From Parcubacteria group bacterium Gr01-1014_8 (lineage in GTDB: Bacteria; Patescibacteriota; Minisyncoccia; Phycocordibacterales; UBA2100): 64,000 nt of DNA. The notes beneath the pieces are model-generated. The model ran no database searches and had not been told where the DNA came from. It saw only the letters and a list, made by a program, of their open reading frames with translations. Shown here piece after piece: positions 8,775 through 27,774 of the stretch. The position numbers were made by a program, and so were the translations under genes. Position 1 is the first letter of the stretch. Each line of letters begins with the position of its first letter. The stretch covers positions 32,001-96,000 of the forward strand of contig VMGC01000004.1 in assembly GCA_007376385.1 (NCBI GenBank). Direction: 5' to 3'.

Positions 8775-9602
8775 ATGGCCATGGAATCGGCAGTGGAGCG
8801 TGCTGGCGAAGCGGCGGGCGCAGCTCACCTGCCTGCCGAAGCCTCGGCGCAGGCAGGCGAAACAGGTATTCACGTCGCTCTTGCCGCTGAACGGCTTGGC
8901 CACTTTCTCGGCATTCCGATAACGAATACGCTTGTTACAAGCCTTGCTGCGATGGGTATTCTCGTCATTCTATCATTTGTGATGCGAGGCCGTTTAAAAC
9001 TCATTCCTGGTAAATTCCAGACATTGCTCGAATACGCGTTCGAATTTGTGTACGACTACGTCGCCGAAACTCTTGAGAGCACCGAAATGGCGAGAAAATT
9101 CTTCCCGCTCCTTATGACAATATTCCTTTTCGTATTTACCGCAAATATTCTTGAATTTATCCCGGGCGTCGGCAGTCTCACGTTTGACCATCACCCGCTT
9201 TTCCGTGGCGCGAATACTGACCTCACAACCCCGCTTGTGCTCGCGTTGGTGTCTTTTTTCGTCATCGAGATAACCGGAATCTTGACGATTGGCATCTGGA
9301 AATACGGAAGTAAGTTCCTTCAGAATCCGCTTACAAATCCAGTCGGATTTGCGGTCGGGCTCATTGAGCTCATCGGCGAACTGGTGAGAGTCGTCTCGCT
9401 ATCGTTCCGGCTTTTCGGCAACATATTTGCCGGTGCGGTTGTTATCAGTGTCGCGACTTATTTCGCGCCGTATGGAGTTCCGGTATTGTTGATGCTGTTC
9501 GAGATATTCATCGGCTTTTTGCAGGCAGCCGTATTTGCGCTTCTCACGCTCTTTTTCATCAAACTCGCTATCGAGGAACCGCACCGCGAAGAAGCGCACT
9601 AA
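8775..9602 (+). CDS. atpB: F0F1 ATP synthase subunit a
   Basis: Multi-TM protein with the conserved SLSFRLFGNIFAG motif carrying the essential Arg. Confidence 0.9.
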   Translation: MAMESAVERAGEAAGAAHLPAEASAQAGETGIHVALAAERLGHFLGIPITNTLVTSLAAMGILVILSFVMRGRLKLIPGKFQTLLEYAFEFVYDYVAETLESTEMARKFFPLLMTIFLFVFTANILEFIPGVGSLTFDHHPLFRGANTDLTTPLVLALVSFFVIEITGILTIGIWKYGSKFLQNPLTNPVGFAVGLIELIGELVRVVSLSFRLFGNIFAGAVVISVATYFAPYGVPVLLMLFEIFIGFLQAAVFALLTLFFIKLAIEEPHREEAH

Positions 9603-9608
9603 GCCGAG

Positions 9609-10112
9609 CTACGGCTTGATAGGAATTTCTTGAAATATGTGTTCTGTACCGCTTGGCGCGAATGCGTAGTCTGCGAAGCGTATCCACGTGGGTCGTATCC
9701 AGATAACAGCAGTCTTTTCAGGGTTCAGTTTGGACACGGGCGCAAAGAAATATGGATTGGCGTTGTATACATCCAAGATCTTGCTCCGTGTGCTTTGCAT
9801 GTCAGCGTCAAGAGAGACGTCTTTTGCCATGCCCTCTATTTGTATTGTTTGCGGTACATCTTCTCGCATGACGGTGAAAGCGACCTGCGGGTGCGCCGAT
9901 AGCGATGCATACTTTCGGCTCGAGGGGAGTGTTAGGAAATACACGTTGAATTCATCGTCGGCATAGTAATGAATGGCACTTGCATGCGGAATGTTGTCGT
10001 GTCCTGCGGTAGCAAGCACGCCCGTTTTGTTACGCTTTAGGAATGCAAGGGCATCGGCTCGTGCCGCCTGGTCGCTCATGGTGCCTATACTACCATTTAA
10101 TACTCTATTCAA
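9609..10112 (-). CDS. Pyridoxamine 5'-phosphate oxidase-like FMN-binding split-barrel protein (general stress protein 26-like)
   Basis: 167 aa with a PNPOx-like split-barrel pattern (GVLATAG..., ..VYFLT...). Encoded antisense between atpB and atpE. Confidence 0.65.
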   Translation of the reverse strand: MNRVLNGSIGTMSDQAARADALAFLKRNKTGVLATAGHDNIPHASAIHYYADDEFNVYFLTLPSSRKYASLSAHPQVAFTVMREDVPQTIQIEGMAKDVSLDADMQSTRSKILDVYNANPYFFAPVSKLNPEKTAVIWIRPTWIRFADYAFAPSGTEHIFQEIPIKP

Positions 10113-10117
10113 AGGGA

Positions 10118-10145
10118 TTGAGACGTTGAAATACTGTGCTATTAT
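10118..10145 (+). promoter_or_regulatory. Candidate sigma70-like promoter (TTGAGA - 16 nt - TATTAT) for the atpE-atpC genes
   Basis: -35 TTGAGA at 10118-10123 and -10 TATTAT at 10140-10145. A GC hairpin CCGCGGC-tt-GCCGCGG lies at about 10236-10251 in the leader. Confidence 0.25.
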
Positions 10146-10282
10146 GCCGGCATTCGCATTTTATTGGCGGCGTAGAGCGAGGAAGGGAAAAGCATTCATT
10201 TTCATTTCCGAGCCGATGAGCCAAGATAGGATCGAATACCCCGCGGCTTGCCGCGGCATGAGTATCCTTTATTAATTACTAG

Positions 10283-10525
<243 letters not shown>

Positions 10526-10561
10526 ATCGGCGCACCATAGCGCCGAACGCTTTTTTGGCTC

Positions 10562-11011
10562 ATGTCTGAATTATTCGCAGCTTTTGGCATTAACTGGAAA
10601 CTCCTCTTGATCCAGGCGTTCAATTTCGGCATTTTGCTATTGGTGTTGTGGAAATACCTCTATACGCCTGTTCTGCGAATAATCGATGAACGACGGCAAA
10701 AAATGGCAGAAGGTGTAAAAAACGCAGAAGAGGCCGAAAAAAAACTAGCGTCAGCAGAAAGCGAAGGAAAAGATATAGTATCGAACGCTTCTCGCGAAGC
10801 AGAAGGAATGGTCGTTGCGGCACGAACTCGGGCGGGAGAAAAAGAAGATGAAATTATCAAGGAGGCTGAAAGCAGAGCGGACGTCATACTTCGGGAGGCA
10901 GCCGCGAGGGCGGAAGAAGTGAACCGTCAAATGCTTGCGACAAGCGCTCGTGACATTGCAAAGGCGGCGGTACTCGCCGCGGAGAAAATACTTCGACAAA
11001 AAAACGCATGA
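10562..11011 (+). CDS. atpF: F0F1 ATP synthase subunit b
   Basis: N-terminal TM helix followed by a long charged helix (AEEAEKKLASAESEGK...). Confidence 0.85.
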   Translation: MSELFAAFGINWKLLLIQAFNFGILLLVLWKYLYTPVLRIIDERRQKMAEGVKNAEEAEKKLASAESEGKDIVSNASREAEGMVVAARTRAGEKEDEIIKEAESRADVILREAAARAEEVNRQMLATSARDIAKAAVLAAEKILRQKNA

Positions 11012-11134
11012 TGCTGCTTCCTCGAACTATGAAAACCTTTCATCAAACCAATACGTATGCATCGGGTGGTACCATGAGGTCAAACGCTGTTTTATATTAC
11101 GCGCAAGAATAATTCGTCATTATACAAACCTGGT

Positions 11135-11521
11135 ATGGAAAAATCGTACGCGCAAGCTCTGTGGAATTGTGTCGAGAGGGGAATGGAGCCTGCGCATGCC
11201 GTGCGCTCGCTTCACCAAGGGCTTGAAAGACGAGGACGCGCTTCCCTGTGGCCGCAAATTGCGCGCGCATTTGAACGGCTCGCGTCGAGAGAGTCGCAAA
11301 AGAATCGCTCGGTCTTGATCGTCGCCGATAAAAGTCATGAGAAAGAAGCGCGTAAAGAGTCGGACGCGGAAGATGCCCGTCTCGTCGTTGATACAGGTTT
11401 GATCGGTGGATGGCGCTTTGAAAATAACGAGCAGTTGATTGATGCGAGTTTTAAGAAAAATCTTCTTGAATTGTATCAGCGGTCGACAAATGGTATGCAT
11501 TCGGCGGGCTACCAGCAGTAA
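11135..11521 (+). CDS. atpH: F0F1 ATP synthase subunit delta (short, 128 aa)
   Basis: C-terminal [11 protein letters not shown]...[12 protein letters not shown] matches the OSCP/delta C-terminal motif. An in-frame stop at 11075 precludes a longer N-terminus. Confidence 0.75.
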
Positions 11522-11538
11522 GTTGCGAGCTACCCACT

Positions 11539-13110
11539 ATGGATTCAAAAGTTGTTCAAAAAATAGTAAATGAGATAGAAAAGTATCAACCGAAGGTTGA
11601 GAGCACACACGTCGGGCATGTGACGGCTGTGGGGGATGGAGTCGTCGCAATTGACGGACTATCGAAAGCGGTCATGAGCGAGATCGTGGAATTCGAGGAG
11701 ACGGGAGGAAAATCTTTGAAGGATTCAATGGAGACAGGCGGCACATTGTATGGCCTTGTGCTCAACTTGGAAGAAGACAGTGTGCGTGCGACGATCCTCG
11801 GTGATTCTGCAAGGGTTAGCGAGGGCATGACCGTAAAGTCAACCGGCCGGATCTTGTCGGTACCATCCGGGGATGAGCTACTTGGCCGCGTTGTGAACGC
11901 GCTCGGCGAACCAATTGATGGCAAAGGCCCTTTCAAGAATCCGACCATGATGCCCGTTGAGCGCGAAGCGTATGGCGTTATCTTTCGAAAATCAGTTTCG
12001 GTGCCTCTGCAGACCGGTGTAAAAGCAATCGACGCGACGATCCCGATAGGCCGCGGACAGCGAGAACTCATCATCGGCGACCGCTCGACTGGAAAAACAA
12101 CTATTGCCATCGATACTATCATCAATCAGAAGAATGAACCTGCCGAAAAAAGGCCCATTTGCATCTATGTCGCCATCGGTCAAAAGGAATCAAAAACAGC
12201 GCGTATCGTTGCGCAGCTGAGCGGGGAGGGGGCAATGGGGTACACAATTATCGTGGATGCACCTGCGTCTGCTCCCGCGGCGCTGCAATTTCTTGCACCA
12301 TTCGCTGGAGCTGCTATTGGCGAATACTTCATGGACCGAGGGAAGGACGTCTTGATAATTTATGACGACCTTTCAAAGCAGGCCGTCGCATACCGCCAGC
12401 TCTCACTTCTCCTCCGCCGACCGCCTGGTCGCGAGGCATATCCGGGGGACATCTTTTACCTGCATTCGCGCCTTTTGGAGAGGGCAGCGCGGCTCTCTGA
12501 TGAAAAAGGAGGCGGTTCGCTTACCGCGCTTCCGATCATTGAAACTCTGGACGGCGACATTTCTGCCTACATTCCAACAAACGTCATTTCCATCACCGAC
12601 GGTCAGATATTCCTAACAGCAGATCTCTTCAACAAAGGAGTGCGTCCGGCAGTGGATGTTGGTACCTCCGTATCCCGTGTCGGTTCTGCGGCTCAGACGA
12701 AAGCGATGAAAAGCGTAGCAGGAACACTTCGATTGGAACTGGCTCAATTCCGCGAACTCGAAGCGTTCATGCAATTTGCGCAGGACCTGGACAAAGCAAC
12801 TGCGGAGAAGATCGAAACCGGCCGCCGTATGGTGGAAGTGTTGAAGCAAAAGAACGGCGAACCGATGCCTCTTGAGCGGCAAGTTGTTGCCATTTACGCG
12901 GCAGGACAGAGGTTTTTTGCGGATGCTCCGGCAGCAAAAGTGACGGCAGTAGAGAAGAGACTTCTTGAATTCTTTGATAATAGATATTCTGAAGTTTTTA
13001 AAGCTATTAAAGAAAGAGGCATTATCGGCGATGACACGAAGAAGTTGCTCGATAAGGGGCTTCAAGAATTCAAGCAAGCTCAAAAAGAACTCTTCTCCCT
13101 TGCGAAATAG
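11539..13110 (+). CDS. atpA: F0F1 ATP synthase subunit alpha
   Basis: Walker [10 protein letters not shown] and full-length alpha-subunit similarity. Confidence 0.95.
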
Positions 13111-13113
13111 AGT

Positions 13114-14028
13114 ATGGCGGGATTGAAGAACATCAAGTTGAAGATTCAATCCGTAAAGAAGACCTCCACGGTAACCCGTGCGATGGAGGCGGTTTCTGCC
13201 GTAAAGATGCGAAAGGCGCAGCAGCGCGCTTTGACGGCAAGGCCGTACGCACTTTCTGCTTTCCGCGTTCTTCGCGGACTTTCAGGGAGCGTTGACCTCT
13301 TGAGCCATCCCTTAATGACTGAAAGAAAGGAGGGGAGAATTGCGGTCTTGTTGATAACGAGCGACAAAGGCCTCGCGGGCAGTTTGAATAGCGCAGTCCT
13401 TAAGAAAGTGGAGAATTTCATTAAAGGCAGAAATCTTAAACGAGACGACCTTATTTTTCTCTGTCTCGGAAAGCGCGGCTACGAATTCGCGCAGGCGCGC
13501 GGGTACAAAGTCGCGCATCGCCATATAAATATTTCGGACGATATCGACCTTGAAGAATTCGAGCAGATAACGAAACAAATAACGACACTGTATAACGACG
13601 GGATCGTGCGCGATGTGCATGCTGCATATACGAACTATGTTTCAACCTTCGAACAGCGCGCCGCGATGCACAAGATCCTTCCACTTTCGAGACTCATCGT
13701 TGAGCACATAGTTGCAGATATTGCGACGCCACGAGGAAAACTGTTAGACAAATTTGAGGCTGACGCCGTCCCAACATACATGGTAGAGCCCGATGCATCG
13801 GAAGTATTCACAATGCTTTTGCCGTTGCTCGTGAATGTGGCCATCTTTCACAAGCTATTGGAATCGAAAGCATCAGAACACTCGGCACGCATGGTTGCCA
13901 TGAAGAGCGCAACCGATAAGGCAAAGGAAATGTCACAAATTCTTACTCGCAAATTCAACAAGATCCGCCAAGCGGCGATCACGCGTGAAGTTTCAGAAAT
14001 TACAAGCGGTATCGAGGCGATGAAATAG
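13114..14028 (+). CDS. atpG: F0F1 ATP synthase subunit gamma
   Basis: Conserved N-terminal (IKLKIQSVKKTSTVTRAMEAVSAVKMRKAQ) and C-terminal helices typical of gamma. Confidence 0.9.
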   Translation: MAGLKNIKLKIQSVKKTSTVTRAMEAVSAVKMRKAQQRALTARPYALSAFRVLRGLSGSVDLLSHPLMTERKEGRIAVLLITSDKGLAGSLNSAVLKKVENFIKGRNLKRDDLIFLCLGKRGYEFAQARGYKVAHRHINISDDIDLEEFEQITKQITTLYNDGIVRDVHAAYTNYVSTFEQRAAMHKILPLSRLIVEHIVADIATPRGKLLDKFEADAVPTYMVEPDASEVFTMLLPLLVNVAIFHKLLESKASEHSARMVAMKSATDKAKEMSQILTRKFNKIRQAAITREVSEITSGIEAMK

Positions 14029-14030
14029 AT

Positions 14031-14468
14031 ATGTCAGACTCCCCTGATTGGTTAGGCAAGCTGAAACATATCGGAAGCGATAGTCCGCTCGTGAAAGAGG
14101 GATTGAGCCGAATGCAAGGTACAATGAACACATTTACCGCACGTTTTTCGCCGATTTCTTCTGAGGTTAATCGAATCACCGCAACGAAACTTTGGAAAGA
14201 GCAAGTTATACCGATATTTGCTCGCGCGATCCACGAAATAAACTACCTCGACATCGTTAAAAACCGCGGTCTTGCCAATCCACTCCGGCATCAGGCATTG
14301 TCTGCCGCCGACGATAAGTTGAGGCAAGCGGAAGCCGAGTGTCGAAATATGAACACACAAAGCAGACTCGCGGCGCTTGTAGGTCCAGAGGATGAAATTC
14401 GGCGTTTGAGAATTGAACTCTGGGGATTCCTCCTAGCGTGGGACAAGGCTGAGCTTTCAAGTGATTAG
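14031..14468 (+). CDS. Hypothetical protein inserted between atpG and atpD
   Basis: 145-aa ORF starting 2 nt after the atpG stop. Soluble and helical, with no recognisable motif. Confidence 0.5.
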   Translation: MSDSPDWLGKLKHIGSDSPLVKEGLSRMQGTMNTFTARFSPISSEVNRITATKLWKEQVIPIFARAIHEINYLDIVKNRGLANPLRHQALSAADDKLRQAEAECRNMNTQSRLAALVGPEDEIRRLRIELWGFLLAWDKAELSSD

Positions 14469-14500
14469 GATTGAATTTATTTATAAAACCTGTAATCTAG

Positions 14501-15886
<1,386 letters not shown>

Positions 15887-15887
15887 T

Positions 15888-16136
15888 ATGGTTGCTGTGA
15901 GAACGTTTCGGCTCGTCATAACATCTGTTACGGGAGCACAATTCGATGGCGATGCTATTTCCGCGACGCTACCTGGTTCTGCCGGCGAAATGACGATCCT
16001 TGCGCATCACGAACCCCTCGTTAGCACGCTTCGAAAAGGTTCGATAAAAGTGAGGACAGAACAAGGCTCACAGGAGATAAAAGTGGAAAAGGGGGTTGTG
16101 GAGTGCTCAAGCAACCGCGTCACCATCTTAGTCTAG
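15888..16136 (+). CDS. atpC: F0F1 ATP synthase subunit epsilon (N-terminal beta-sandwich only, 82 aa)
   Basis: Starts 2 nt after atpD. Sequence is similar to the epsilon N-domain and the C-terminal helical hairpin is absent. Confidence 0.8.
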   Translation: MVAVRTFRLVITSVTGAQFDGDAISATLPGSAGEMTILAHHEPLVSTLRKGSIKVRTEQGSQEIKVEKGVVECSSNRVTILV

Positions 16137-16195: not shown

Positions 16196-17293
16196 ATGCG
16201 CGTACATGCGGTGTATACCGTTGGTTTTCTCGCCAGTGTGGTGATGATTCTTTTGATTCCCGGGTGGATCCTTGCAGCTCTGCCTACCGGTTTGACGCCG
16301 AAAGTAACATTTAGCGGAGCCGCTTCGACCTACAATCCGCAGTGCGAAGCTGAACAGTGGAATACATCAACAGGACAGAGATACAATCCGAATGAATGGG
16401 CCGCAGCGTTGCAACAAGGCTATGCGCAAAAATATCGATGCGGGTACGGCACGGGCAGAGTATGTTGTGCTGTTGTACAAGAACCCGGGGGTCGAGCTCT
16501 TATACTTAAGATAAATGATAATGGTCCTCTCAAACCGGGGAGGGTCATCGATTTGAATGAAAAATCAATGCGGTACCTTAGCTACGAAAAGTTCGGCAAT
16601 TGTAACGGATTGATCCCCCGTGTGAGCGTGGCGCTCCTAGACGGGTCGAGCTGTCCAATGGGTCCGGTCGAAGAAGCCGACAAGAAAGCTTGGAACGATA
16701 AAGTTGTAAGCGCACCTGCAGACACAGGACCGGTAGGTCCAAGCGCGGCTACCGGAGTCCCAGCACCGAGCGGTTTTCCAACAACCATCGGCCAGGCCTA
16801 TCAGGGGAATCAACCAACACAGGCGCAGCAGTATATGCCTTCACAGCCGGCGGTAGCGCAGAACCAGCCGGGGGGAATGCAACCGACGTCATACTTCAAC
16901 CCGCAACAGCCTGCGCAAAATCCATCAATGCCTTTGCCTTCCATGTCCCAACCCGCAGCGCAAGACAGTACGCAGATCGAGTCGGTCACAGAACGGATCT
17001 CGAATTTTCTAAAAGGTGGTACAACGGAAAAACCCATTGATACGAAGTCGCTCACGTTTGATTCACGTGTAAGTTCGAAAGTGATACTTTCTCCGGAGCA
17101 CCCAGCGTCCGGCAGTTCGGCAAGTACGAGCTCAAGCACGCCGCTGGCGCCGTCGCAAACCTTCGTTTCGCCCGACATGGCTTTCTCTGAGCCGAGTGAG
17201 CCCGTGAATCAGCGGCTGATCGCTATTCTCGAGACAATTCGCTTAGCCGCGCTCAAACTGTTGGCGAGGTTGAGACAACTAGTACCGCTCTGA
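16196..17293 (+). CDS. Membrane-anchored RlpA-like double-psi beta-barrel protein with Pro/Gln/Ser-rich tail
   Basis: N-terminal TM/signal. The segment SGAASTYNP...GYGTG...ILKINDNGPL..RVIDLNEKSMRYL resembles the RlpA/expansin-like DPBB fold, followed by a low-complexity PQ-rich linker. Confidence 0.5.
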   Translation: MRVHAVYTVGFLASVVMILLIPGWILAALPTGLTPKVTFSGAASTYNPQCEAEQWNTSTGQRYNPNEWAAALQQGYAQKYRCGYGTGRVCCAVVQEPGGRALILKINDNGPLKPGRVIDLNEKSMRYLSYEKFGNCNGLIPRVSVALLDGSSCPMGPVEEADKKAWNDKVVSAPADTGPVGPSAATGVPAPSGFPTTIGQAYQGNQPTQAQQYMPSQPAVAQNQPGGMQPTSYFNPQQPAQNPSMPLPSMSQPAAQDSTQIESVTERISNFLKGGTTEKPIDTKSLTFDSRVSSKVILSPEHPASGSSASTSSSTPLAPSQTFVSPDMAFSEPSEPVNQRLIAILETIRLAALKLLARLRQLVPL

Positions 17294-17362
17294 AGAACAG
17301 GAGAGCGTGTTTTCAACACCTTGGCGTCATGACAGGCATCTAAACGTTACAATGGAGCGAAT

Positions 17363-19276
17363 ATGCGGGCTATCCTAGGCCTTTGTTTTGTGTTGCTAGC
17401 GGCTTTACCGGTGTTCGCCATCACAGTGCCTGCAAATCCAACGACTGACGCAGAGCAGGCGGAAAGATCCTGCGCGGGCGAACAAACCGCAAAAACCGGT
17501 GAAGACGCAAAAGGAAAAATCGATTGTTCTCTAAAGTGCGGATCGAGAGTGATGAAGGTTGAGAAGGGAAAAGTTGTCATAACAAAAGACGAAAAAGGAA
17601 AGCAGTGCAGCGACCTTCAAAAAAATGTAATTTGCAAAACGTTGCCCAATAGTCCCGATTGCTGCACAGGCACCATCAGGTTTGTTTCGCCTGACATTCG
17701 AACGCCGGATAGGGTATTTTCTCGGTGCTCTCGCGATGATAAAGAGATCGAAAAGCAGGCTGAGCTGTTTGAAAATCTTGCAGGGAGGCAGCAGACTGCA
17801 ACAAATCTCAATGACCTTATTCAGTCAGTCGATCCGGATCTGCCATTGCCTGAAGGCATCCATCAAGAACTCAAGAACGGTCTTATGGAGCTCGGTTTTA
17901 CGCCCGGCCAGGCGGATGAGCTCATTCCTAAACTTGTCGGAAATCAGCAGAGTGCGGAAGATGCGCTCGATAAGATAGCGACGGGCAGAGCAGGATCTAT
18001 TACTGCAGACGAGCATGGTTTCAGCCTTTCTGACGCTGAGCGCTCGAATTTGCAGGCGCATATGGAAGCTTTGCAACCCGGTGAGCGTCCGCTCGACGAA
18101 GAACAGACTGACCCCGCCGTCGCGAGATGCAACGCTGGCGAAGAGTGTCCGGATAATACGTTCAAAGATGACGAAAAGGATGCATTGCTTCATCAGGCGG
18201 CGCTAAAAGATGATGTTGCAGACATGTGCGGGAAGCTCGACGGATGTTCCGTGGAATGCAGTGCAAGAAATCCGCTCGTATGCGTGACTCAGAATCCCGG
18301 TGCCGTCGTGTGCAGTCCTATTGCTAGAAGATTCGGTTGCAGTACGTGCGATCCCAACAATAACACTGCAATATGTCCGTCCATGGAAGCAGGAATTGCA
18401 TTGCAGGCTGTGCTCCTCCGTGAGAATGGTCGTTACTTCGGCTCCGGACAGAAATCAATACTTCAGGCATTTTGCAGCGGTTATTCGGCATCAAATTGCG
18501 GTCCGTATGCGCAATTCGTCGCCAGTCGAACGAGTATACCCATCAATCAAACTATTGACCCAAACAATACGGAACAGTTGGCGCGCATCATGATGGCGAG
18601 TTCTCGTTTTGAAAGCGGCCGGGGCGTGCTGTATTCGCCTGAACAGTTGCAACACGGTCTGGAGATCGCGTACGGTACGAGGGAACTCCCGCCCGCGACG
18701 CCAGGGTATGTCCCAAATTTCACTGCCGGCGGCTTGCCTAACGCTACGTCGCCATTCAACATTGGCTATGGAAATGATCCGTTCAGCACCGGCTTCGGGT
18801 CTCCCTTCGGCACGGGGACAAATGTGGGAACTCCGACAAATGTCGGGTACCCCACGAACACCGGGTATCCGGCCCAAAGTGGCTACGGCAGCGGGGGGAT
18901 CCCAGGGGGAACGGGGCCATCGCAAATCCCTGTTTCCCCGATCCCAATATCTCAGATCATTGATCCTCAAGGTCAGATGATGACCGTCGTGTCGATGCAG
19001 CCTGTGATAACGCTCATCGCAGAGCCAAATGAGATAGTACGAGGAAAAGGGGCTATCGTCTCATGGTCAGCGGTTGGTGTGAAGACGGAACCGAAATGTT
19101 CAATAACGAAAAGCGGTGTCGCAGGTTCGGGTACGTTTGCGGGGGGCAACGACGGCGCCAAACGTCTGAAAACGACGAAACAAATGTCGCCCGGCGTTGT
19201 TACACTTACAATGAAGTGTGTTTCAAGCGCAACAGGCCAAGTGCTCGAAAAAGGACAGCAAATCACCGTACGATGA
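17363..19276 (+). CDS. Large secreted cysteine-rich protein (637 aa), unknown function
   Basis: Signal peptide MRAILGLCFVLLAALPVFA. More than 30 Cys in the mature part, a G/T/P/Y-rich low-complexity segment, and a C-terminal beta-rich region. Confidence 0.6.
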   Translation: MRAILGLCFVLLAALPVFAITVPANPTTDAEQAERSCAGEQTAKTGEDAKGKIDCSLKCGSRVMKVEKGKVVITKDEKGKQCSDLQKNVICKTLPNSPDCCTGTIRFVSPDIRTPDRVFSRCSRDDKEIEKQAELFENLAGRQQTATNLNDLIQSVDPDLPLPEGIHQELKNGLMELGFTPGQADELIPKLVGNQQSAEDALDKIATGRAGSITADEHGFSLSDAERSNLQAHMEALQPGERPLDEEQTDPAVARCNAGEECPDNTFKDDEKDALLHQAALKDDVADMCGKLDGCSVECSARNPLVCVTQNPGAVVCSPIARRFGCSTCDPNNNTAICPSMEAGIALQAVLLRENGRYFGSGQKSILQAFCSGYSASNCGPYAQFVASRTSIPINQTIDPNNTEQLARIMMASSRFESGRGVLYSPEQLQHGLEIAYGTRELPPATPGYVPNFTAGGLPNATSPFNIGYGNDPFSTGFGSPFGTGTNVGTPTNVGYPTNTGYPAQSGYGSGGIPGGTGPSQIPVSPIPISQIIDPQGQMMTVVSMQPVITLIAEPNEIVRGKGAIVSWSAVGVKTEPKCSITKSGVAGSGTFAGGNDGAKRLKTTKQMSPGVVTLTMKCVSSATGQVLEKGQQITVR

Positions 19277-19584
19277 CACAAACACCTGCATTTCAGAAAA
19301 ACGTCGAGGACTTTACGTGCGAACACTGCGGCGCACTCGTGAGGGGTGATGGATATACGAATCATTGTCCAAAATGCCTATGGAGCAAGCATGTCGATAT
19401 GCATCCGGGCGATCGCTCAAACCCATGCCACGGCATGATGGAACCCGTTTCTATCGAGGGCGGTCCGCACGAATATAGGGTGGTTCACCGCTGTCAGAAA
19501 TGCTCCGCCAAAAAGCGCAATATTATCGGCCCTGAAGACGATATGAATATCGTGATAGCACTTGCCGGCAAGCAACATTCCTAA
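19273..19584 (+). CDS. RNHCP-like zinc-ribbon protein
   Basis: About 103 aa with CxxC...NHCPKC...C..C clusters (FTCEHCG, TNHCPKC, CQKCS). Its ATG overlaps the upstream stop (ATGA). Confidence 0.5.
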   Translation: MTQTPAFQKNVEDFTCEHCGALVRGDGYTNHCPKCLWSKHVDMHPGDRSNPCHGMMEPVSIEGGPHEYRVVHRCQKCSAKKRNIIGPEDDMNIVIALAGKQHS

Positions 19585-19625
19585 GTGAACAGGACAGGAA
19601 AAGTTGAAGGTGGTATTATTTAAAC

Positions 19626-20144
19626 ATGACGAAAATAAAACAAGAGCCCGAATCTGAGCTGGAACCGCCAGCTAATCTCTACTTTCCAAGGTTGAGTTTG
19701 GGTCCATCTCTCGCGCACTATCATGGCGACCACGTTCGGAGGCTCTTCATTGCCGCGGCAGGCGCGATGCTCGTCCTGGCTCCATTTCTTAGCAGTTACA
19801 TGCCGTATACACTCCCTTTCGAAATACTTGGTGCTGTCGTTATCGTTGTTCTCGCGGCTCTTACGAATCCGAAGAAGGAAATGGTAATGATGGCCAATGC
19901 GTTTGCTGCGGGTATAGGGGTCGTTGCAAATGAGACCATCGCACTCTTTGCATATTTTGACGGCTCTATATTTATTTTTTTCGGAAGGGAAGTTATCGCG
20001 TTCCTATTTATATTTGCTCTGTACTTTAGTTTAAAGACCGTTCGTGCGATGGAATTGGGGCAGATAGGGAAGCGCGAACCACCCGGAGAATTTCGCGAAC
20101 CGACGCTCGAAGAGATGTGGGAAGAAACACATCATCAGAAATAG
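19626..20144 (+). CDS. Hypothetical membrane protein (3-4 TM)
   Basis: Hydrophobic helices with an acidic N- and C-terminus. Confidence 0.5.
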   Translation: MTKIKQEPESELEPPANLYFPRLSLGPSLAHYHGDHVRRLFIAAAGAMLVLAPFLSSYMPYTLPFEILGAVVIVVLAALTNPKKEMVMMANAFAAGIGVVANETIALFAYFDGSIFIFFGREVIAFLFIFALYFSLKTVRAMELGQIGKREPPGEFREPTLEEMWEETHHQK

Positions 20145-20161: not shown

Positions 20162-23100
20162 CTATCGCACGGGGGAGGATCGCTGCACAACAGTGCTGTC
20201 TTGCCGCGCGATTTTCCACGAACCCGGCCATCGGTAGGTCAAAATCGGTATCATCACTAAGGTCAATATCATAGAGAATGCAAGCCCGAACATGATAGCG
20301 AACGCCAGCGGTCCCCATAGCGCTGAAGCGCCAGCAAGCGGCGCCATGCCGATAACGGTTGTCAGCGTCGTAAGGAATATCGGACGAAGGCGTGAGACGG
20401 CGGCCTCGACGATGATATCTCTATGGCTAAGGTCGTGCCGCGTCTGCAAAAGCCGATGTATTGAGTCAGTAAGAATAATTGCGTGATTAATGATAACCCC
20501 GGCGAGCGCAATGATGCCGATGACGGACGAGAACGACAGCGTTTGCGCCGTTAAGAACAATCCTCCGAAGACGCCGATCAAGGATAGGATGACCATCAAG
20601 ATGAGGTAGAGTGCGTGGCGCAGAGAATTGAATTGAAGGACCATGATGGCTATCATCAAAAGGAGGCCCGCAATGAACGCGATACCCATTTCCGCGAATG
20701 ACTTATTTACATCTTCAGTCTCACCGCCCGCTTTCCACGTGACGCCCTCTGGCAATTCGAGTTCATCTATACGCGCTTCGAATTCGTTTGTAACTTCAAC
20801 TGCTGTTTTACCGCCAGAAACCTGGCTAGAGACAGTCTCAATGCGCTTGCGATCGTCATGGCTGATGGAAGATTTTCCGCGATGAATTGATGTATCGAGA
20901 ACTGAACCGAGGAGTACCGGTCCACGGGGCGTTGGAATAGATATCGCGCGCAAAGCGTCTGGGCTAATGATAGTCGTTTCAGATGGGTCATCATAGAGGG
21001 GATTGAGGTCGAGTTTAACAACGACGTCTATATCGTCTTTAGCATTTCGTATCGTCGTAGCCGTTTGACCTTGTACAGCCGTGCGCAGTGTTTGCGCTAT
21101 CATCACCGGCGATAATCCTAAGGAAGCTGCTTTTGCCCTGTCGATAGAAAGTGAGAATTCGAGCCCGTTATCTTTCACGCTCGACTGAATGTCTGAGACT
21201 CCTTCAATGGAGGAAAGAATGTTTTCTGCCTTTAACGCGGCACTTTCCAGTTGGTCGAGGTCATCGCCGGAAAATGTGATGAGTACCGGCGAGCCCGACG
21301 GCGGGCCGTTATTCGGCTCCTGTATGCGAACATCCGTTCCCGGGATCGTGCCAACGCTTTTCCGAATATCCTCAACTACCTCGGACGAGGTCTTAGTCCT
21401 GTTTTTTTTGAGAAGTATAGTGATGTTCGCAAGATGGCCACCAGACGTTGGAGCGTCTCCAGTAAGAGCGCTCGAACCTCCCGTTGTCGTGGTGAATGCT
21501 TCAATATCAGGATTTCCATACAGCGATTCCTCAACGATGCGTACCGCAAGGTCGGTCTCTTCGAGAGCAGTGCCGCGCGGTTTCTCGATCTCAGCAAAAA
21601 TAAAATCTATGTCTTCCTGCGGGAAGAACGTTGTCCTCAAGAGGCCTGTAATAGGTAAGAGCATGGAGAGGATGAATGCGCCTGCTATTGACCACAGGAA
21701 AATATTCTGCGCCCGTCTGCTATCTAAGAGCCCGGATAGCTTCATCCGGTACCACTCTTGGAATCGATGCGTATACTCCTCTTGTTTTTGTTCGAGCCTG
21801 TTAGACTCTTTTGTCGTTAAAGCGATAGCTATGAGAGGAACAATGCCGAGAGCAACAAAAATTGACGCTACAAGAACGAAGATAAGCGTGAAAGGAATCG
21901 ATGCTATGAATTCGCCGACAATGCCGGATATGAAAAAAAGTGGAGCAAATACGGCGACGCTCGCCATCGTGCCGCTCATAAGCGGCCACGCATATTCCCG
22001 AAGCGACACGGCAGCTGCTTCATCCTTCGTAGGATAGCGGCGCATGCGGGTATGTATGGCCTCGGTGACAACGATGCCGGAATCAACCAGGATACCAATT
22101 GCAAGAATGAGCGCAAAAAGCGATACGAAGTTTATCGTATTGCCGGACGCTTGCAGGCCTATGAATGCTATAAGGAACGAAAGCGGAATAGAAGCTGCTG
22201 CAACGAGCGATTCACGCCAACCTATCGTTATAAAGAGAGTAAGCATCACCAATATCATGGTCTCGAATCCGACGCTGGTGAGCTCCGTTAAGTCTTTATT
22301 GACCTCTTCCCCTAAGTCGAGCGCAACGACAACCGTACTCCCCGCAAGCATGCCCGACTGCAATTCATCAAGCCGTTCTTTTATAGCGTCGGCAGTCGCG
22401 ACGATATTGCCGCCGGAACTTTTGAAGACGGAGAGCGTAAGGGAAGATTGCGACGGCTCACCCGCCTTCGACGCTCGGGAGATGCTCGTCGGTTTTTGTA
22501 ATCCATCCACAATGTCTGCGATATCGCGGATGTACACGATCGAGCCGCTTTGAGTCAATATCGCAACATCACGCACTTGGTCCGCTTTTGTAAGGTCTCC
22601 CTCAAAGTTCAGCGCGTATTCGACAGAATTGACGGTTATTGAACCTACCGGCAGCGAAGCATTTGATGCTTGTATGGCTCCCGTTACATCTCCTAGTCGG
22701 AGTCCATACTGCTCGAGTTTGTCTTTTTGAACTATGACGTGTATCTGGCGTTTCCGCACGCCTGACACTTCTACTCGGGAAACACCGTCCACATTTTGAA
22801 GCTCTTCTTTTATATCGTCGCCTAGTTTTGTGAGGATAGAAGGCGGATATTCACCGGTCACGGAAATAATAAGTACTGGTTGTTCGGAGAAATTTATCTC
22901 GCTCACGACCGGGTCATTTGCTTCTTCCGGCAGATTTGGTTTTACCTGGTCTATCGCGTCCTTCAAGTCCTGGATAGATTTGTCGAGGTCGGCACTCGCG
23001 TCGAATTGCACAGTAACGATCGAAATGCTCTCGCGAGAACTCGACGTGAGTGTGTCCAGGTTTTCAAGATTCGCGACAGCTGTTTCTATCTCATTCGTTA

Positions 23101-23290
23101 TGAGCTGCTCCACATCTTCAGCTGAACCGCCCGGCAGAACGACCGAGACGATGCCGACTGGGATACGAACCTCGGGCGCTGATTCCTTGGGGATCGAGAG
23201 AAGCGCGTAAGTACCAGCAGCAATGAGAGACACTACGAGAAGAACCGTGAATTGGCGCTTTTTAAGAAAAAATGTCCAGAGCGGTAACAT
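20162..23290 (-). CDS. RND efflux transporter, AcrB/HAE1-like inner-membrane permease
   Basis: 1042 aa with 12-TM topology, two large periplasmic loops and family-wide conserved segments. Confidence 0.9.
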   Translation of the reverse strand: MLPLWTFFLKKRQFTVLLVVSLIAAGTYALLSIPKESAPEVRIPVGIVSVVLPGGSAEDVEQLITNEIETAVANLENLDTLTSSSRESISIVTVQFDASADLDKSIQDLKDAIDQVKPNLPEEANDPVVSEINFSEQPVLIISVTGEYPPSILTKLGDDIKEELQNVDGVSRVEVSGVRKRQIHVIVQKDKLEQYGLRLGDVTGAIQASNASLPVGSITVNSVEYALNFEGDLTKADQVRDVAILTQSGSIVYIRDIADIVDGLQKPTSISRASKAGEPSQSSLTLSVFKSSGGNIVATADAIKERLDELQSGMLAGSTVVVALDLGEEVNKDLTELTSVGFETMILVMLTLFITIGWRESLVAAASIPLSFLIAFIGLQASGNTINFVSLFALILAIGILVDSGIVVTEAIHTRMRRYPTKDEAAAVSLREYAWPLMSGTMASVAVFAPLFFISGIVGEFIASIPFTLIFVLVASIFVALGIVPLIAIALTTKESNRLEQKQEEYTHRFQEWYRMKLSGLLDSRRAQNIFLWSIAGAFILSMLLPITGLLRTTFFPQEDIDFIFAEIEKPRGTALEETDLAVRIVEESLYGNPDIEAFTTTTGGSSALTGDAPTSGGHLANITILLKKNRTKTSSEVVEDIRKSVGTIPGTDVRIQEPNNGPPSGSPVLITFSGDDLDQLESAALKAENILSSIEGVSDIQSSVKDNGLEFSLSIDRAKAASLGLSPVMIAQTLRTAVQGQTATTIRNAKDDIDVVVKLDLNPLYDDPSETTIISPDALRAISIPTPRGPVLLGSVLDTSIHRGKSSISHDDRKRIETVSSQVSGGKTAVEVTNEFEARIDELELPEGVTWKAGGETEDVNKSFAEMGIAFIAGLLLMIAIMVLQFNSLRHALYLILMVILSLIGVFGGLFLTAQTLSFSSVIGIIALAGVIINHAIILTDSIHRLLQTRHDLSHRDIIVEAAVSRLRPIFLTTLTTVIGMAPLAGASALWGPLAFAIMFGLAFSMILTLVMIPILTYRWPGSWKIARQDSTVVQRSSPVR

Positions 23291-23310: not shown

Positions 23311-24921
23311 TTACTGCGCGATTTCCACCTCTTGCCCTTCCTTTAAGCCGCGAACATCCACAACGATCTTAGTATCTGCATCGAGCCCGGAAGTTACTTG
23401 CACGTACTCGCCGGACAATTTGCCGATCGTAATTTCATGCGATACTGATTTATTTTCAACAACGGAAAAAATAATGGTACGACTAGCCTCGATCTTGAGG
23501 GCAGTTATAGGAATCGAAAGAGGGCCTTTTACTTCGGGTTTTGGTTTCTCGCCATTCGCGGTAAATTCTACTCTCAGCGATTGACCGTTCGTCAGCGTGT
23601 TTATCGCAGTTACAGGAAGCCCAATACGTACCTCTATCTTACGGGTCACAGGGTCAAGCGCAGGCGCTATTTTGGTAACGACGCCGGTGATGCCTCCCTC
23701 CAGCGCTACCTTCTGCCCGACTGATACGCGAGATTTATCCTCTTCTGTAAGAAATGCGATCGCTTCAAGTGCATTGTTGTTTGAAACAATAGCTATCTCT
23801 TGGGAAGGCGCAACCGTGTCGCCGAGCTTGATGGTGAAGTTATTCAACGTTCCTGAAATAGGGGAACGAATGATGGTTTTTTCAAGGTTTGCAAGTGCGG
23901 CGTTGTATGCTCCTTCGGCCTGCTTTACTACCGCTGCTGCAGCCGCGACGTCTTCCGACTGTGCGCCTGTCTCGCCTTGTTCGAGATTCTTTTCTGTAGT
24001 TTCAATTCCGCTTTTTGCTGAAGTGATCGCGGAAAGGGCGGTAGTGAGAGCAGTTCGAGAAGCAGTTGCATCGGAGCGGAATGCGGCAATGTCCGCCGAA
24101 TCAACGCCCGGTGAGTCGATGGCATCTGAGAGAGCGGCGAGAATGGTGTCGATAAATGTGCGTATATCACGCACCTCTGCTTCAGTAACTTGCAATTCGG
24201 TCTTCAGGTCGGAAGATGTAGAAATTGCATGGGATGCTGATTCTTGTCTTTTTAGAACAATAGCGAGTTCGCCACGTGTATATTCGAGAGCCACCTCTCG
24301 CTGCTGATTTGACGTTACCGGGGTGAATTGTATCTGGCCTATCTCAACGCCAGTGAACATTTGGTCCGCTGTATCGTTTACAGCGCTGTCCACTGTCCCG
24401 TATGCCGTAAGAAGTGAATTTACGGCAGTACCCTTCGCGGATGCGAGGACCGACTGGAGTATGGACAATTGTTCAGCCCGTGTACCGCCCTGGATCTTGT
24501 GGAGCGACGCTTTGGCGGCATCATATGCACCCTCAACTTGTAAGACTGTCGCGCGCTGCGAGCTATTCTCCAGTTCGGCAAGGACCTGGCCAGCCCCGAC
24601 GTGGTCTCCAAGAGATGCCTTTACGCGAACAACTCTGCCCCCGTTTTCGGGTGATATCTTCGCCTCGTTCACCGATTGGACTTCAGCGATAACTGAAAGG
24701 GTAGTACCCCCGTTCATGAGGTCGGCAACCCGTTTTACCACAACTGTTCGTATTTGTTTCTCTGCGAGCTCTGTTGAGCCGCCAGAGAGCGATATATAAG
24801 CAACAACAGCTATGAGGGCAATGACGAGCAGGAGAATGATGGATAGAGTTCTTCGAGAACGCCAGCTCACTCCGCGAAGAAGTCTTAGGAAAGGCACATT
24901 CTGAATGTTGAATGATGGCAT
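23311..24921 (-). CDS. RND efflux periplasmic adaptor (membrane fusion protein, HlyD-like)
   Basis: N-terminal TM anchor, long coiled-coil hairpin, and lipoyl/beta-barrel-like flanks. Immediately upstream of the RND permease. Confidence 0.85.
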   Translation of the reverse strand: MPSFNIQNVPFLRLLRGVSWRSRRTLSIILLLVIALIAVVAYISLSGGSTELAEKQIRTVVVKRVADLMNGGTTLSVIAEVQSVNEAKISPENGGRVVRVKASLGDHVGAGQVLAELENSSQRATVLQVEGAYDAAKASLHKIQGGTRAEQLSILQSVLASAKGTAVNSLLTAYGTVDSAVNDTADQMFTGVEIGQIQFTPVTSNQQREVALEYTRGELAIVLKRQESASHAISTSSDLKTELQVTEAEVRDIRTFIDTILAALSDAIDSPGVDSADIAAFRSDATASRTALTTALSAITSAKSGIETTEKNLEQGETGAQSEDVAAAAAVVKQAEGAYNAALANLEKTIIRSPISGTLNNFTIKLGDTVAPSQEIAIVSNNNALEAIAFLTEEDKSRVSVGQKVALEGGITGVVTKIAPALDPVTRKIEVRIGLPVTAINTLTNGQSLRVEFTANGEKPKPEVKGPLSIPITALKIEASRTIIFSVVENKSVSHEITIGKLSGEYVQVTSGLDADTKIVVDVRGLKEGQEVEIAQ

Positions 24922-25070: not shown

Positions 25071-25661
25071 ATGACTAAAAAAATATTTCTCCTCCTCGGT
25101 CATCCGGACAAGATGGGATTATGCGGCGAACTTGCCGACGCATATGAGAAGGCGGCGCGAGATGCGGGACACACCATAGAGCGCATGAATTTAGGGGAAA
25201 TTAAATTTGACCCTATTCTTCACAAAGGATATCGCGAGAAACAAGAATTGGAGCCAGACCTGGTGCGCTTTCAGCAGCTCGTAACCGCGTCAGATCACTT
25301 TGTCGTTCTATACCCGGTCTGGTGGGTGGGCATGCCGGCGCTTCTCAAAGGTCTTTTTGATCGTGCGTGGCTTCCCGGTTCTGCGTTTCGCTATATAAAG
25401 ACAAAGGGCGGGCAGCGCACGGTGTTTTGGCACCGGCTATTTCGAGGGAAAACTGCCCGGATAATAATGACCAGCGGTACGGCGCCGTGGATTGTCCGCT
25501 TTTTGCCTGGCAACGTTAATGCGCAGTTGCGATGGGGAATCTTGTGGTTTGCAGGTTTCTCTGTCTGCACAACGTGGTTCGGTCCCGCAGAAAACCCGGA
25601 GCCCGCGACAAAGAAGCATTGGCTTGCGAAGATCAGCGCTTTAGGTAGAGGGGCGAGGTGA
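25071..25661 (+). CDS. Flavodoxin-like fold NAD(P)H-dependent oxidoreductase
   Basis: KIFLLLGHPD... N-terminal flavodoxin-like motif, typical of the NAD(P)H dehydrogenase (quinone)/KefF-like family. Confidence 0.7.
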   Translation: MTKKIFLLLGHPDKMGLCGELADAYEKAARDAGHTIERMNLGEIKFDPILHKGYREKQELEPDLVRFQQLVTASDHFVVLYPVWWVGMPALLKGLFDRAWLPGSAFRYIKTKGGQRTVFWHRLFRGKTARIIMTSGTAPWIVRFLPGNVNAQLRWGILWFAGFSVCTTWFGPAENPEPATKKHWLAKISALGRGAR

Positions 25662-26832: not shown

Positions 26833-27774
26833 ATGCGAGAGCAAAAATTACCAAAATATTTACAGCCGATGCTCGCGACGCTCATCGACGCGCCGTTTGA
26901 CGATGCTGAGTGGGTGTACGAAACCAAGTGGGACGGTTTTCGCATTGTTGCCGAGATAAAGCCCGGCGCGGTTACATTATATTCGCGTAACGGTCAGGTC
27001 ATGAGCGAACGATACAAGCCTGTAGCGATGGCGCTTTCAAAAATTCATCACGACGCGGTCATAGACGGCGAGCTGGTCGCGCTCGACAGGCAAGGCGTAT
27101 CGCGTTTTCAGCTGTTGCAAAATGCGTTGAAAACAAAAGTTGACCTGCACTATTGTATTTTTGACGTGATGTTCCTAGATGGTAAAGACCTTCGCGGCCT
27201 CTCTCTCGTCGAACGCAAGGAACAACTAAAAAGGATTATTCCGAATGATACGTTGTTGCGATATAGCGAACATCGTTTTGAACACGGAACAAGATACTTT
27301 AATGAGGCAAAAAAGAAAAAGGAGGAAGGCATCATGGCAAAACGGGCAGAGAGTAAGTATCTTTCTGGCAAGCGCTCAATGGCGTGGCTGAAGATCAAGA
27401 CTGGCTCGAGGCAGGAGGTCGTCATCGTCGGCTTTACTGCCCCCAAACGTTCTCGTAAATATTTCGGCTCCTTGGCGCTCGCAGTTCACGAAACCGGCCG
27501 GTCGAGCGGGAAAAAATGGCGCTATGTCGGGCATGTCGGCACAGGATTTGATGCAGCTGCCTTGAATGAGATACATGGGAAATTAGAACATTTGAGGACA
27601 CGGCATTCGCCGTTCGATACGGCGGTGAAATATGAGTCAACGACAACATGGGTGAAGCCAAAGCTTGTTGGCGAAGTGAAATTCACTGAATGGACGGACA
27701 AAGGGGAGATGCGGCATCCTGCGTTCATGGGGCTTAGAGAGGACAAGAAGCCTGAGGAAGTAGTGCGCGAATAG
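26833..27774 (+). CDS. ATP-dependent DNA ligase (LigD ligase-domain type)
   Basis: Motif I KWDGFR (adenylation lysine). Conserved ligase motifs follow (FDVMFLDG, EGIMAK, WLKIK). Confidence 0.85.
   Translation: MREQKLPKYLQPMLATLIDAPFDDAEWVYETKWDGFRIVAEIKPGAVTLYSRNGQVMSERYKPVAMALSKIHHDAVIDGELVALDRQGVSRFQLLQNALKTKVDLHYCIFDVMFLDGKDLRGLSLVERKEQLKRIIPNDTLLRYSEHRFEHGTRYFNEAKKKKEEGIMAKRAESKYLSGKRSMAWLKIKTGSRQEVVIVGFTAPKRSRKYFGSLALAVHETGRSSGKKWRYVGHVGTGFDAAALNEIHGKLEHLRTRHSPFDTAVKYESTTTWVKPKLVGEVKFTEWTDKGEMRHPAFMGLREDKKPEEVVRE

Follow-up and report, generated by a model that had tools for sequence, protein, structure and literature searches.

An Enc34-type peptidoglycan glycosidase domain, predicted to be exported, in a variable slot behind the ATP synthase operon of a Kaiserbacteria-like Patescibacterium

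Gene content of the locus

We considered four consecutive genes on the plus strand of a DNA stretch of 64 000 nt from Parcubacteria group bacterium Gr01-1014_8 (assembly GCA_007376385.1, contig VMGC01000004.1, positions 32 001 to 96 000); this whole stretch is called the window, and all positions are counted from its first letter. Gene 1 encodes an RlpA-like protein with a DPBB domain, gene 2 a Cys-rich multidomain protein, gene 3 a zinc-ribbon protein of the RNHCP family and gene 4 a small membrane protein (Table 1). An earlier reading of the sequence (the original prediction) had described these co-oriented genes, and they were found at exactly the coordinates it gave; it had proposed that they could form a cell-surface, adhesion or effector module unlike any characterized system. 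We saw that the core of the gene 2 product is a peptidoglycan glycosidase domain of the Enc34 type (family PHA02564) and that genes 1 and 2 are accessory to a conserved gene order in which genes 3 and 4 take part.

The distances from atpC to gene 1 and between the successive genes 1 to 4 were 59, 69, −4 and 41 nt. The negative value corresponds to an overlap of the gene 2 stop codon with the gene 3 start codon (ATGA at 19273–19276), which was present as described; among the homologous loci (numbered with L below) it occurred only in L001, the others having gaps of 10–104 nt or, in one locus, the reversed gene order. Matches to promoter and terminator consensus sequences across the region were no commoner than in shuffled sequence, so that these scans define neither transcription units nor operon boundaries.

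Table 1. Features of the locus and its surroundings in the window (ORF, open reading frame; aa, amino acids; CPR, Candidate Phyla Radiation; pLDDT, predicted local distance difference test score)
Feature	Position (nt)	Strand	Basis
Gene 1, RlpA-like DPBB protein, 365 aa	16196-17293	+	ORF and Pfam DPBB_1
Gene 1, N-terminal hydrophobic signal or anchor, aa 1-34		+	Hydropathy
Gene 1, DPBB domain, aa 40-136	16313-16603	+	Pfam, alignment with 4AVR
Gene 1, P/Q/S-rich linker between DPBB domain and C-terminal tail			
Gene 1, tail 'QTF ... amphipathic helix', aa ~315-365	17138-17290	+	Resembles C-termini of CPR proteins P0041 and P0047
Gene 2, predicted secreted multidomain peptidoglycan glycosidase, 637 aa, 23 Cys	17363-19276	+	ORF, translation, homologues
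Gene 2, predicted signal peptide, aa 1-19, MRAILGLCFVLLAALPVFA	17363-17419	+	Hydrophobic segment; equivalent N-termini in homologues
Gene 2, N-terminal Cys-rich, beta-containing region, aa ~37-122	17471-17728	+	Alignment, Cys conservation, low-confidence model
Gene 2, helical region, aa ~126-250	17738-18112	+	Helices 126-206 at pLDDT 68-86 in full-length model
Gene 2, catalytic domain, Enc34-type (PHA02564), aa 283-452	18209-18718	+	Profile, model, residues
Gene 2, predicted catalytic Glu, E417 (with Y382, Y374)	18611-18613	+	
Gene 2, low-complexity linker, aa 453-544	18719-18994	+	67% G/T/P/Y/S/N; pLDDT <50
Gene 2, C-terminal Ig-like beta-sandwich, aa 545-637, conserved pair C579/C619	18995-19273	+	Model, Foldseek, blastp
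Gene 3, predicted cytoplasmic RNHCP zinc-ribbon protein, 103 aa	19273-19584	+	Pfam PF12647
Gene 4, small membrane protein, 172 aa	19626-20144	+	Hydropathy, conserved place 3' of RNHCP gene
F1Fo ATP synthase operon, complete	8775-16136	+	Pfam; ends 59 nt 5' of gene 1
ATP synthase subunits a, alpha, gamma, beta, epsilon	8775, 11539, 13114, 14519, 15888-16136	+	Pfam
AcrB-type RND transporter	20162-23290	-	Pfam; convergent to gene 4
HlyD-type membrane-fusion protein	23311-24921	-	Pfam
Flavodoxin_2 gene, backbone	25071-25661	+	Pfam

Catalytic domain of the gene 2 product

The gene 2 product matches G01um10148_789, an NCBI hypothetical protein from Parcubacteria group bacterium Gr01-1014_8, with 100% identity. 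Its 17 homologues have lengths of 529–654 aa and are 29–43% identical to it in local alignments over 51–93% of the query, identity across the multiple alignment of the family being 27–34%; the sole homologue with a source name belongs to Candidatus Kaiserbacteria. No family was found for the whole 637-aa protein in Pfam or NCBIfam, the homologues were all devoid of Pfam domains, and comparison with PHROGs gave weak hints only, to endolysin and tape measure families (E about 0.01). Residues 283–452 formed one strongly conserved block in the family alignment, with motifs NNPGA, NNT, QTIDP and SRFE(N/S)GRG; among close family members its identity reached 52–59%, against 27–34% for the full length. 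Pfam holds no model for this domain.

A profile of residues 283–452 built from CPR sequences only matched residues 7–130 of PDB entry 9VVP, chain L (Gp29), with E = 4.1e-5; tblastn identified the matched segment as the N-terminus of gp16 of K1F-like phages, annotated as 'internal virion protein with endolysin domain'. In an exhaustive profile search the domain was found in 660 cluster representatives (E <= 1e-3), among them tape-measure-like proteins, giant or internal virion proteins, as well as small secreted stand-alone proteins bearing the motif RNNNPGNI. Pfam domains co-occurring with it in 78 distant members were PG_binding_1 (3 cases), CHAP (2) and TMP_2, PhageMin_Tail and PG_binding_3 (1 each).

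A model of the domain made from an alignment of 57 sequences had a pLDDT of 91.4. Foldseek comparison of this model with the PDB returned a single significant entry, 7Q47, the endolysin catalytic domain from bacteriophage Enc34 (E = 6e-6), whose all-helical, lysozyme alpha-lobe-like fold the model shares. A mixed profile scored Enc34 ORF39 at 2.7e-30 and the K1F gp16 N-terminus at 1.6e-45, placing the domain in the PHA02564 family by sequence profile as well. With hmmalign, Glu131 of Enc34 fell on E417 of gene 2, Tyr95 on Y382 and Trp79 on Y374 (an aromatic substitution). Residues N311, G344, Y382 and E417 are invariant in 57–58 superfamily sequences, Y374 is nearly invariant in the gene 2 family, and the predicted catalytic Glu and Tyr are present in 18 of the 18 family members.

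The ORF39 domain of Enc34 has been shown to be muralytic in turbidity assays made with ORF39deltaC; it resembles the lysozyme alpha-lobe and uses Glu131 together with Tyr95 and Trp79, compared with GH73 and GH23 its helices come in a permuted order, and the activity that the authors argue for is that of a GH73-like beta-N-acetylglucosaminidase (Cernooka et al. 2022, PMC8943055). By its fold and its catalytic residues the core of the gene 2 product is a domain of this type. The view that nothing characterized resembles the protein did not survive these profile, structure prediction and Foldseek results.

The gene 2 domain and Enc34 ORF39 (7Q47) share the NNPG motif, the catalytic Glu and Tyr, an aromatic residue at the position of Trp79 and the predicted activity of a peptidoglycan glycosidase; however, they are only about 20% identical, and gene 2 is cellular and chromosomal, whereas the Enc34 gene belongs to a phage lysis cassette. 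Gene 2 has a predicted Sec signal peptide, while Enc34 has a C-terminal domain of two transmembrane (TM) helices; in gene 2 the domain lies in the middle of 637 residues, contains six family-conserved Cys and has Tyr for Trp79. In K1F-like phages, the gp16-type internal virion (ejection) protein (9VVP_L) begins with an N-terminal domain that belongs to the same domain family and is the solved sequence closest to the CPR profile, the match covering most of the domain; yet Gp29 is a virion component of 1295 aa delivered into the host envelope, unlike the secreted cellular gene 2 protein with its unrelated flanking domains. With GH73 N-acetylglucosaminidases (FlgJ/TM0633, AtlA, LytB, Ecd09610) and modular Gram-positive autolysins, gene 2 has in common the logic of catalytic domain, linker and binding module with interchangeable catalytic domains; sequence similarity is absent, though, and the gene 2 module is Ig-like rather than LysM, SH3b, CWB or SPOR.

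In the literature searched, the PHA02564 family appears in phage proteins and endolysins only, while here it makes up the core of a chromosomal, exported, Cys-rich CPR protein (a search for 9VVP and for the NNPGN motif gave nothing relevant). A cellular, Cys-reinforced multidomain version of this phage-known domain in CPR, predicted to be Sec-exported, is a novel form of something already known rather than a system of another sort. A testable annotation is thereby gained for a family of about 40 proteins listed as hypothetical and for a related family of paralogues of 400–520 aa.

Export, cysteines and non-catalytic regions of the gene 2 product

The description of the gene 2 product as secreted agrees with a hydrophobic, signal-like N-terminus seen in a hydropathy scan (aa 1–27); Sec export is predicted, with cleavage after VFA. 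The number of cysteines had been overestimated (more than 30): there are 23, 22 of them after the signal peptide. The Cys content amounts to 3.6%, about sixfold the 0.57% of 40 other genes of the window. Twelve Cys are conserved in the family: C59, C82, C100 and C122, belonging to the N-terminal Cys-rich region; C289, C295, C307, C329, C371 and C379, these six being inside the catalytic domain; and C579 and C619. Such a distribution suggests six disulfides, the three groups contributing two, three and one, respectively.

Neither of the two regions preceding the catalytic domain could be assigned to a family: the Pfam scans gave no match for the Cys-rich region (aa ~37–122), and the helical region (aa ~126–250) had no significant one. 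The linker following the domain is the G/T/P/Y-rich segment of the original prediction, and the C-terminus, rightly called beta-rich, gave an all-beta model for residues 545–637 (pLDDT about 80–90) that Foldseek matched to MG, PKD and Ig domains (E = 2e-3 to 3e-2). With the full-length AlphaFold model (pLDDT 55), Foldseek found Ig-like matches to the C-terminus only. By blastp, the C-terminal module was also found in proteins encoded next to RNHCP genes of related genomes, in the slot considered below (L005, L015, L025, L045, L046, L055, L059, L073, L090 and L092).

Gene 1 and the C-terminal modules

Gene 1 had been called an RlpA-like DPBB protein, and Pfam DPBB_1 was matched with E = 2.4e-8 (34.5 bits, cut-off 28.8). 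Its segments TSTGQRYNPN and INDNGP..GRVIDL were aligned with PDB 4AVR (PA4485 of P. aeruginosa, DPBB; E = 6.5e-5), in agreement with the motifs TASGE.YNP and INDRGP..GR.ID of RlpA and PA4485-type DPBB proteins. The full-length RlpA models scored far below their cut-offs (TIGR00413, 24.1 bits against 82.15; NF007953, 20.9 against 201), Pfam gave no SPOR match, and the N-terminal hydrophobic segment contains no Cys and hence no lipobox; thus, 'RlpA-like DPBB protein' is the right level of naming. A linker rich in P and Q and a C-terminal helix tail specific to CPR further set gene 1 apart from RlpA and PA4485-type proteins. Its product shares 38–46% identity with DPBB proteins that occupy the same slot in L005, L015 and L055.

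Two C-terminal modules were seen to be shuffled among secreted wall proteins of CPR, the Ig-like domain with its Cys pair and a tail of ~50 aa, '(Q/N)TF ... amphipathic helix'; either can follow a DPBB or a PHA02564 domain. Carriers of the tail are gene 1, P0041, P0043, P0044, P0045, P0047, P0049, P0054 and a protein of L037, in a survey that took in L005, L015, L037, L045, L055, L059, L073, L094 and proteins P0038–P0055. The two modules may be surface-localization or sorting signals.

Conserved backbone and variable slot

In loci L001–L007, reached via five gene 2 homologues, a gene 2 homologue was present between atpC and the RNHCP gene in all cases, with the ATP synthase operon upstream as in the window; in L009, fetched via an RNHCP homologue, this place is taken by a gene of 600 aa, and in L010 and L011 RNHCP follows atpC directly. 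Behind RNHCP in L001–L007 and L009 we found a protein of ~185 aa (36–41% identical to gene 4), usually followed by Flavodoxin_2, YchF, DUF5671 and LeuRS. As AtpD is ~85% identical among the homologous genomes, they form one moderately deep clade. The DPBB gene has no counterpart in most homologous loci.

A census of GTDB species genomes took in the 80 best-scoring loci out of at least 554 that contain RNHCP (RNHCP 50–64% identical; ORFs taken from stop to stop). The atp operon was directly upstream in 25 of the 80 loci, and 54 had none of the neighbors seen in the window; these 54 came from Anaerolineae, Alpha- and Gammaproteobacteria, Bdellovibrionales, Poribacteria, Doudna-, Morani-, Gracili- and Jorgensenbacteria and others. 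Outside the clade the neighbors of RNHCP showed lineage-specific synteny only, and neighbor clustering yielded no cross-phylum partner. Those in Anaerolineae look, on a reading of the sequences without family-scan confirmation, like Pcm, MutY and an MBL-fold hydrolase.

The 25 atp-linked loci were divided by the content of the slot between atpC and RNHCP: (i) a PHA02564 orthologue of gene 2 (9 loci); (ii) another secreted protein sharing only the C-terminal Ig-like domain of gene 2 (9 loci); (iii) a secreted protein with the other type of tail (1 locus, L037); (iv) nothing (6 loci). Within group (ii), DPBB was found in L015 and L055 and, by Pfam, SLT in L045; the protein of L059, in which Pfam recognized nothing, is SLT-like (blastp to L045, E = 1e-20). 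Motif-only readings of L073 as DPBB-like and of L037 as 3D-like were dropped, since Pfam found nothing in them. In L094, atpC is followed by RNHCP, a PHA02564 paralogue and a homologue of gene 4 (49% identity), behind which RND and membrane-fusion genes lie on the opposite strand. We characterize the genes for RNHCP and for the four-TM protein (gene 4) as backbone genes and genes 1 and 2 as accessory insertions.

That PHA02564, DPBB and SLT domains replace one another on a shared scaffold gives independent support to a muralytic role. A modular design of CPR surface enzymes is exposed here, PHA02564 being swapped with DPBB and SLT at a fixed locus of sister genomes.

In L093 (1–11455, Minisyncoccia) we observed a co-oriented run of three large proteins without Pfam domains, the PHA02564 paralogue P0050, two VanY, GH114 and Peptidase_M15_3, a candidate wall-hydrolase island. 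The company of VanY, GH114 and Peptidase_M15_3 genes in which P0050 is found likewise supports the muralytic role. Several loci labeled 'uncultured Candidatus Saccharibacteria' (L019, L025, L045, L046, L055, L092 and others) carry the Kaiserbacteria-like backbone of atp, RNHCP, four-TM protein and Flavodoxin; their titles may be taxonomically unreliable.

Genes 3 and 4

Gene 3 is matched over its full length by RNHCP (PF12647; E = 5.6e-28, 97.2 bits, cut-off 24) and has the CxxC pairs and the (R/T)NHCP motif of this family. Of the zinc ribbon described earlier, the TNHCP motif was found (T29-N30-H31-C32-P33), but not four Cys pairs: the seven Cys make three CxxC (16/19, 32/35, 74/77) plus C52. 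The subfamily differs from the family in having TNHCP and, within a single Patescibacterial clade only, in standing directly behind the ATP synthase operon. Neither a signal peptide nor a TM or other hydrophobic segment was detected in a hydropathy scan; since gene 2 is exported, the two products should end in different compartments.

There are 1102 RNHCP homologues of gene 3, and identity is 50–64% across Patescibacteria, Anaerolineae, Bdellovibrionales, Alpha- and Gammaproteobacteria and Poribacteria. In a sample of 81 sequences, N30, H31, C32 and P33 show at least 95% conservation; altogether 29–31 residues, depending on the sample, are invariant or at least 95% conserved, namely F7, E12, F14, C16, C19, G25-P33, C35, L36, S38, H40, V41, D42, P45-R48, C52, G54, M56, P58, C74, C77 and D89. 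This pattern resembles an active or ligand site more than a plain zinc ribbon. A literature search for RNHCP gave nothing relevant, the PDB holds no solved structure, and the RNHCP profile found generic zinc-finger similarity only in the PDB (Sgf11, L37ae, RpoM), strikingly conserved across phyla though the protein is.

Gene 4 was correctly taken for a small membrane protein: the hydropathy scan showed overlapping hydrophobic stretches in residues 37–142, and by our reading of the sequence there are four TM helices. It is 36–49% identical to the gene 3' of RNHCP in L002, L003, L005, L006 and L094, and its family was found in about 20 of the 25 atp-linked loci, including those without any wall enzyme. 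No match was obtained in Pfam, NCBIfam or PADLOC; a role as an AtpI-like accessory of the ATP synthase was considered and rejected, as neither ATP-synt_I nor another family matched.

Possible roles of the locus

It is quite likely, in our judgment, that genes 1 and 2 encode accessory Sec-exported enzymes cleaving glycan strands, that they occupy, in a Kaiserbacteria-like Patescibacterium, a variable slot just behind the ATP synthase operon, genes 3 and 4 being backbone and not partners, and that remodeling of the cell's own wall is their most likely role. The gene 2 protein would be exported by its signal peptide, would probably fold oxidatively outside the membrane and would probably be held at the cell surface or wall by the C-terminal Ig-like domain. 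There it would cut the glycan backbone, with E417 as the predicted acid/base and with Y382 and Y374 positioning the substrate, while gene 1 would add a second, RlpA-like DPBB domain; the cell could in this way remodel its wall at the surface and make space for growth, division or surface structures. The slot interrupts a backbone in the order atp operon, RNHCP, four-TM protein, Flavodoxin_2, YchF, DUF5671 and LeuRS. Either way, own wall or host wall, genes 1 and 2 offer candidate enzymes for how ultra-small cells remodel it.

Several observations weigh against this explanation. The enzymatic activity and bond specificity of gene 2 and of the CPR members are transferred from Enc34 by analogy, and Trp79 of Enc34 is replaced by Tyr; in the PDB, moreover, the CPR-only profile reaches the domain of the K1F type and not Enc34 (7Q47), so that the link to Enc34 rests on structure and on the mixed profile. 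The N-terminal 260 residues of gene 2 (~40%) are poorly modeled and have no assigned function. Signal-peptide cleavage, disulfides and surface retention of gene 2 are all predictions. Five slot proteins (L025, L046, L073, L090 and L092) lack a recognizable catalytic domain; thus, the slot is not shown to be exclusively enzymatic. That wall enzymes stay near RNHCP in two gene orders could reflect a regulatory link. Finally, no result obtained here separates the own wall from a host wall as the target.

One could also consider, as the main and a serious alternative although a less probable one, that genes 1 and 2 are weapons with which a presumably episymbiotic Patescibacterium breaches or remodels the wall of its host, the Ig-like domain targeting the host surface and the slot serving as a host-range hot spot. 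Gene 2 diverges fast, with 29–43% identity in the same genomes in which AtpD has 85%, RNHCP 52–57% and gene 4 36–41%, and among the 25 related species the slot varies both in being filled and in the catalytic domain that fills it; Cys richness is what one would expect of a stable extracellular protein. This type of domain otherwise serves phages to penetrate or lyse bacteria (PMC8943055), and in other CPR genomes a PHA02564 paralogue is clustered with several wall hydrolases. However, domain shuffling and fast-evolving linkers are also known in modular autolysins of ordinary bacteria, the locus is bordered by the ATP synthase operon and by an RND pump, with no secretion or injection apparatus nearby, and this organism has no known host, nor did any result identify the wall that serves as substrate. 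A wider version of this idea, which we find rather doubtful, is that the slot after the atp operon is a diversification hot spot of one Patescibacteria clade, where PHA02564, DPBB and SLT domains on a shared scaffold with an Ig-like or TF-helix module would act as host-range determinants opening host walls, an Enc34-type phage lysin domain having been domesticated and furnished with additional Cys as an episymbiont weapon.

Returning to the enzymes of the accessory slot, we can compare them with the idea of a dedicated new four-gene module, an adhesion or effector system in which the Cys-rich protein and RNHCP are translationally coupled and act with the DPBB and membrane proteins. The four genes are co-oriented with short gaps, the ATGA overlap is found in the window and in L001, and genes for wall enzymes adjoin RNHCP in 19 of the 25 related species and, even with the order reversed, in L094. 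But conservation of the overlap is lacking, nothing separates RNHCP from atpC in L010, L011 and six GTDB loci, RNHCP has none of these neighbors in the 54 loci from other phyla, members of the gene 4 family stand behind RNHCP whether wall enzymes are there or not, and the DPBB gene is missing from most loci; consistent co-occurrence and mutual dependence of the components across genomes were not seen. Gene 3 carries no export signal, unlike gene 2, and none of the four proteins matched the PADLOC defense models. Such a four-gene system is improbable; co-occurrence and compartment largely refute it. What stands of the original prediction is that genes 1 and 2 are exported and directed to the surface; what does not is the dedicated module, with RNHCP as a partner of the Cys-rich protein, a false lead that is now removed. 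A match to a characterized family was found, and the neighborhood proved to be conserved, yet as general synteny with a variable slot.

It is still less probable that gene 2 codes for a non-enzymatic adhesin or wall-binding protein whose Enc34-like domain merely binds glycan. Trp79 has changed to Tyr, large parts of the protein are non-catalytic (the first 260 residues, the linker and the Ig-like domain), and slot proteins of several relatives lack a recognizable catalytic domain; yet neither the predicted catalytic Glu nor the Tyr varies among the 18 members or within the wider superfamily sample, the catalytic domain is the most conserved part of the protein, and relatives have bona fide lytic domains, DPBB and SLT, in its stead. 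As for a prophage remnant, i.e. genes 1 and 2 as a lysis or virion module with a true phage endolysin or virion lysin, it is hardly credible: although the domain family is otherwise typical of phage endolysins and of internal virion and tape-measure proteins, the genes occupy, in many species, a syntenic chromosomal place with the ATP synthase operon on one side and housekeeping genes on the other, genes for holin, spanin, capsid or tail are absent from the vicinity, the GC content is that of the flanks, gene 2 has its own predicted Sec signal peptide, and a scan of IMG/VR found no relatives of the CPR type; lying outside any phage genome or lysis cassette, gene 2 is not an endolysin in the functional sense.

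Flanking genes

The RND/HlyD pair is a further insertion in the window, between gene 4 and Flavodoxin_2; in most relatives Flavodoxin_2 lies directly 3' of the gene 4 homologue. An insertion of RND and membrane-fusion genes recurs in L094 (6364–10813). It is curious that no gene for an outer-membrane factor was seen within the annotated stretch around the pair; organisms of this kind are usually regarded as having no outer membrane. A few kb downstream, at 26833–27774, there is an ATP-dependent DNA ligase (DNA_ligase_A_M and DNA_ligase_A_C).

The ATP synthase operon itself has an unusual interruption, an ORF of 145 aa without a family match (orf145, 14031–14468) inserted between atpG and atpD; at this position related genomes have other small ORFs, often Ham1p_like plus NUDIX genes.

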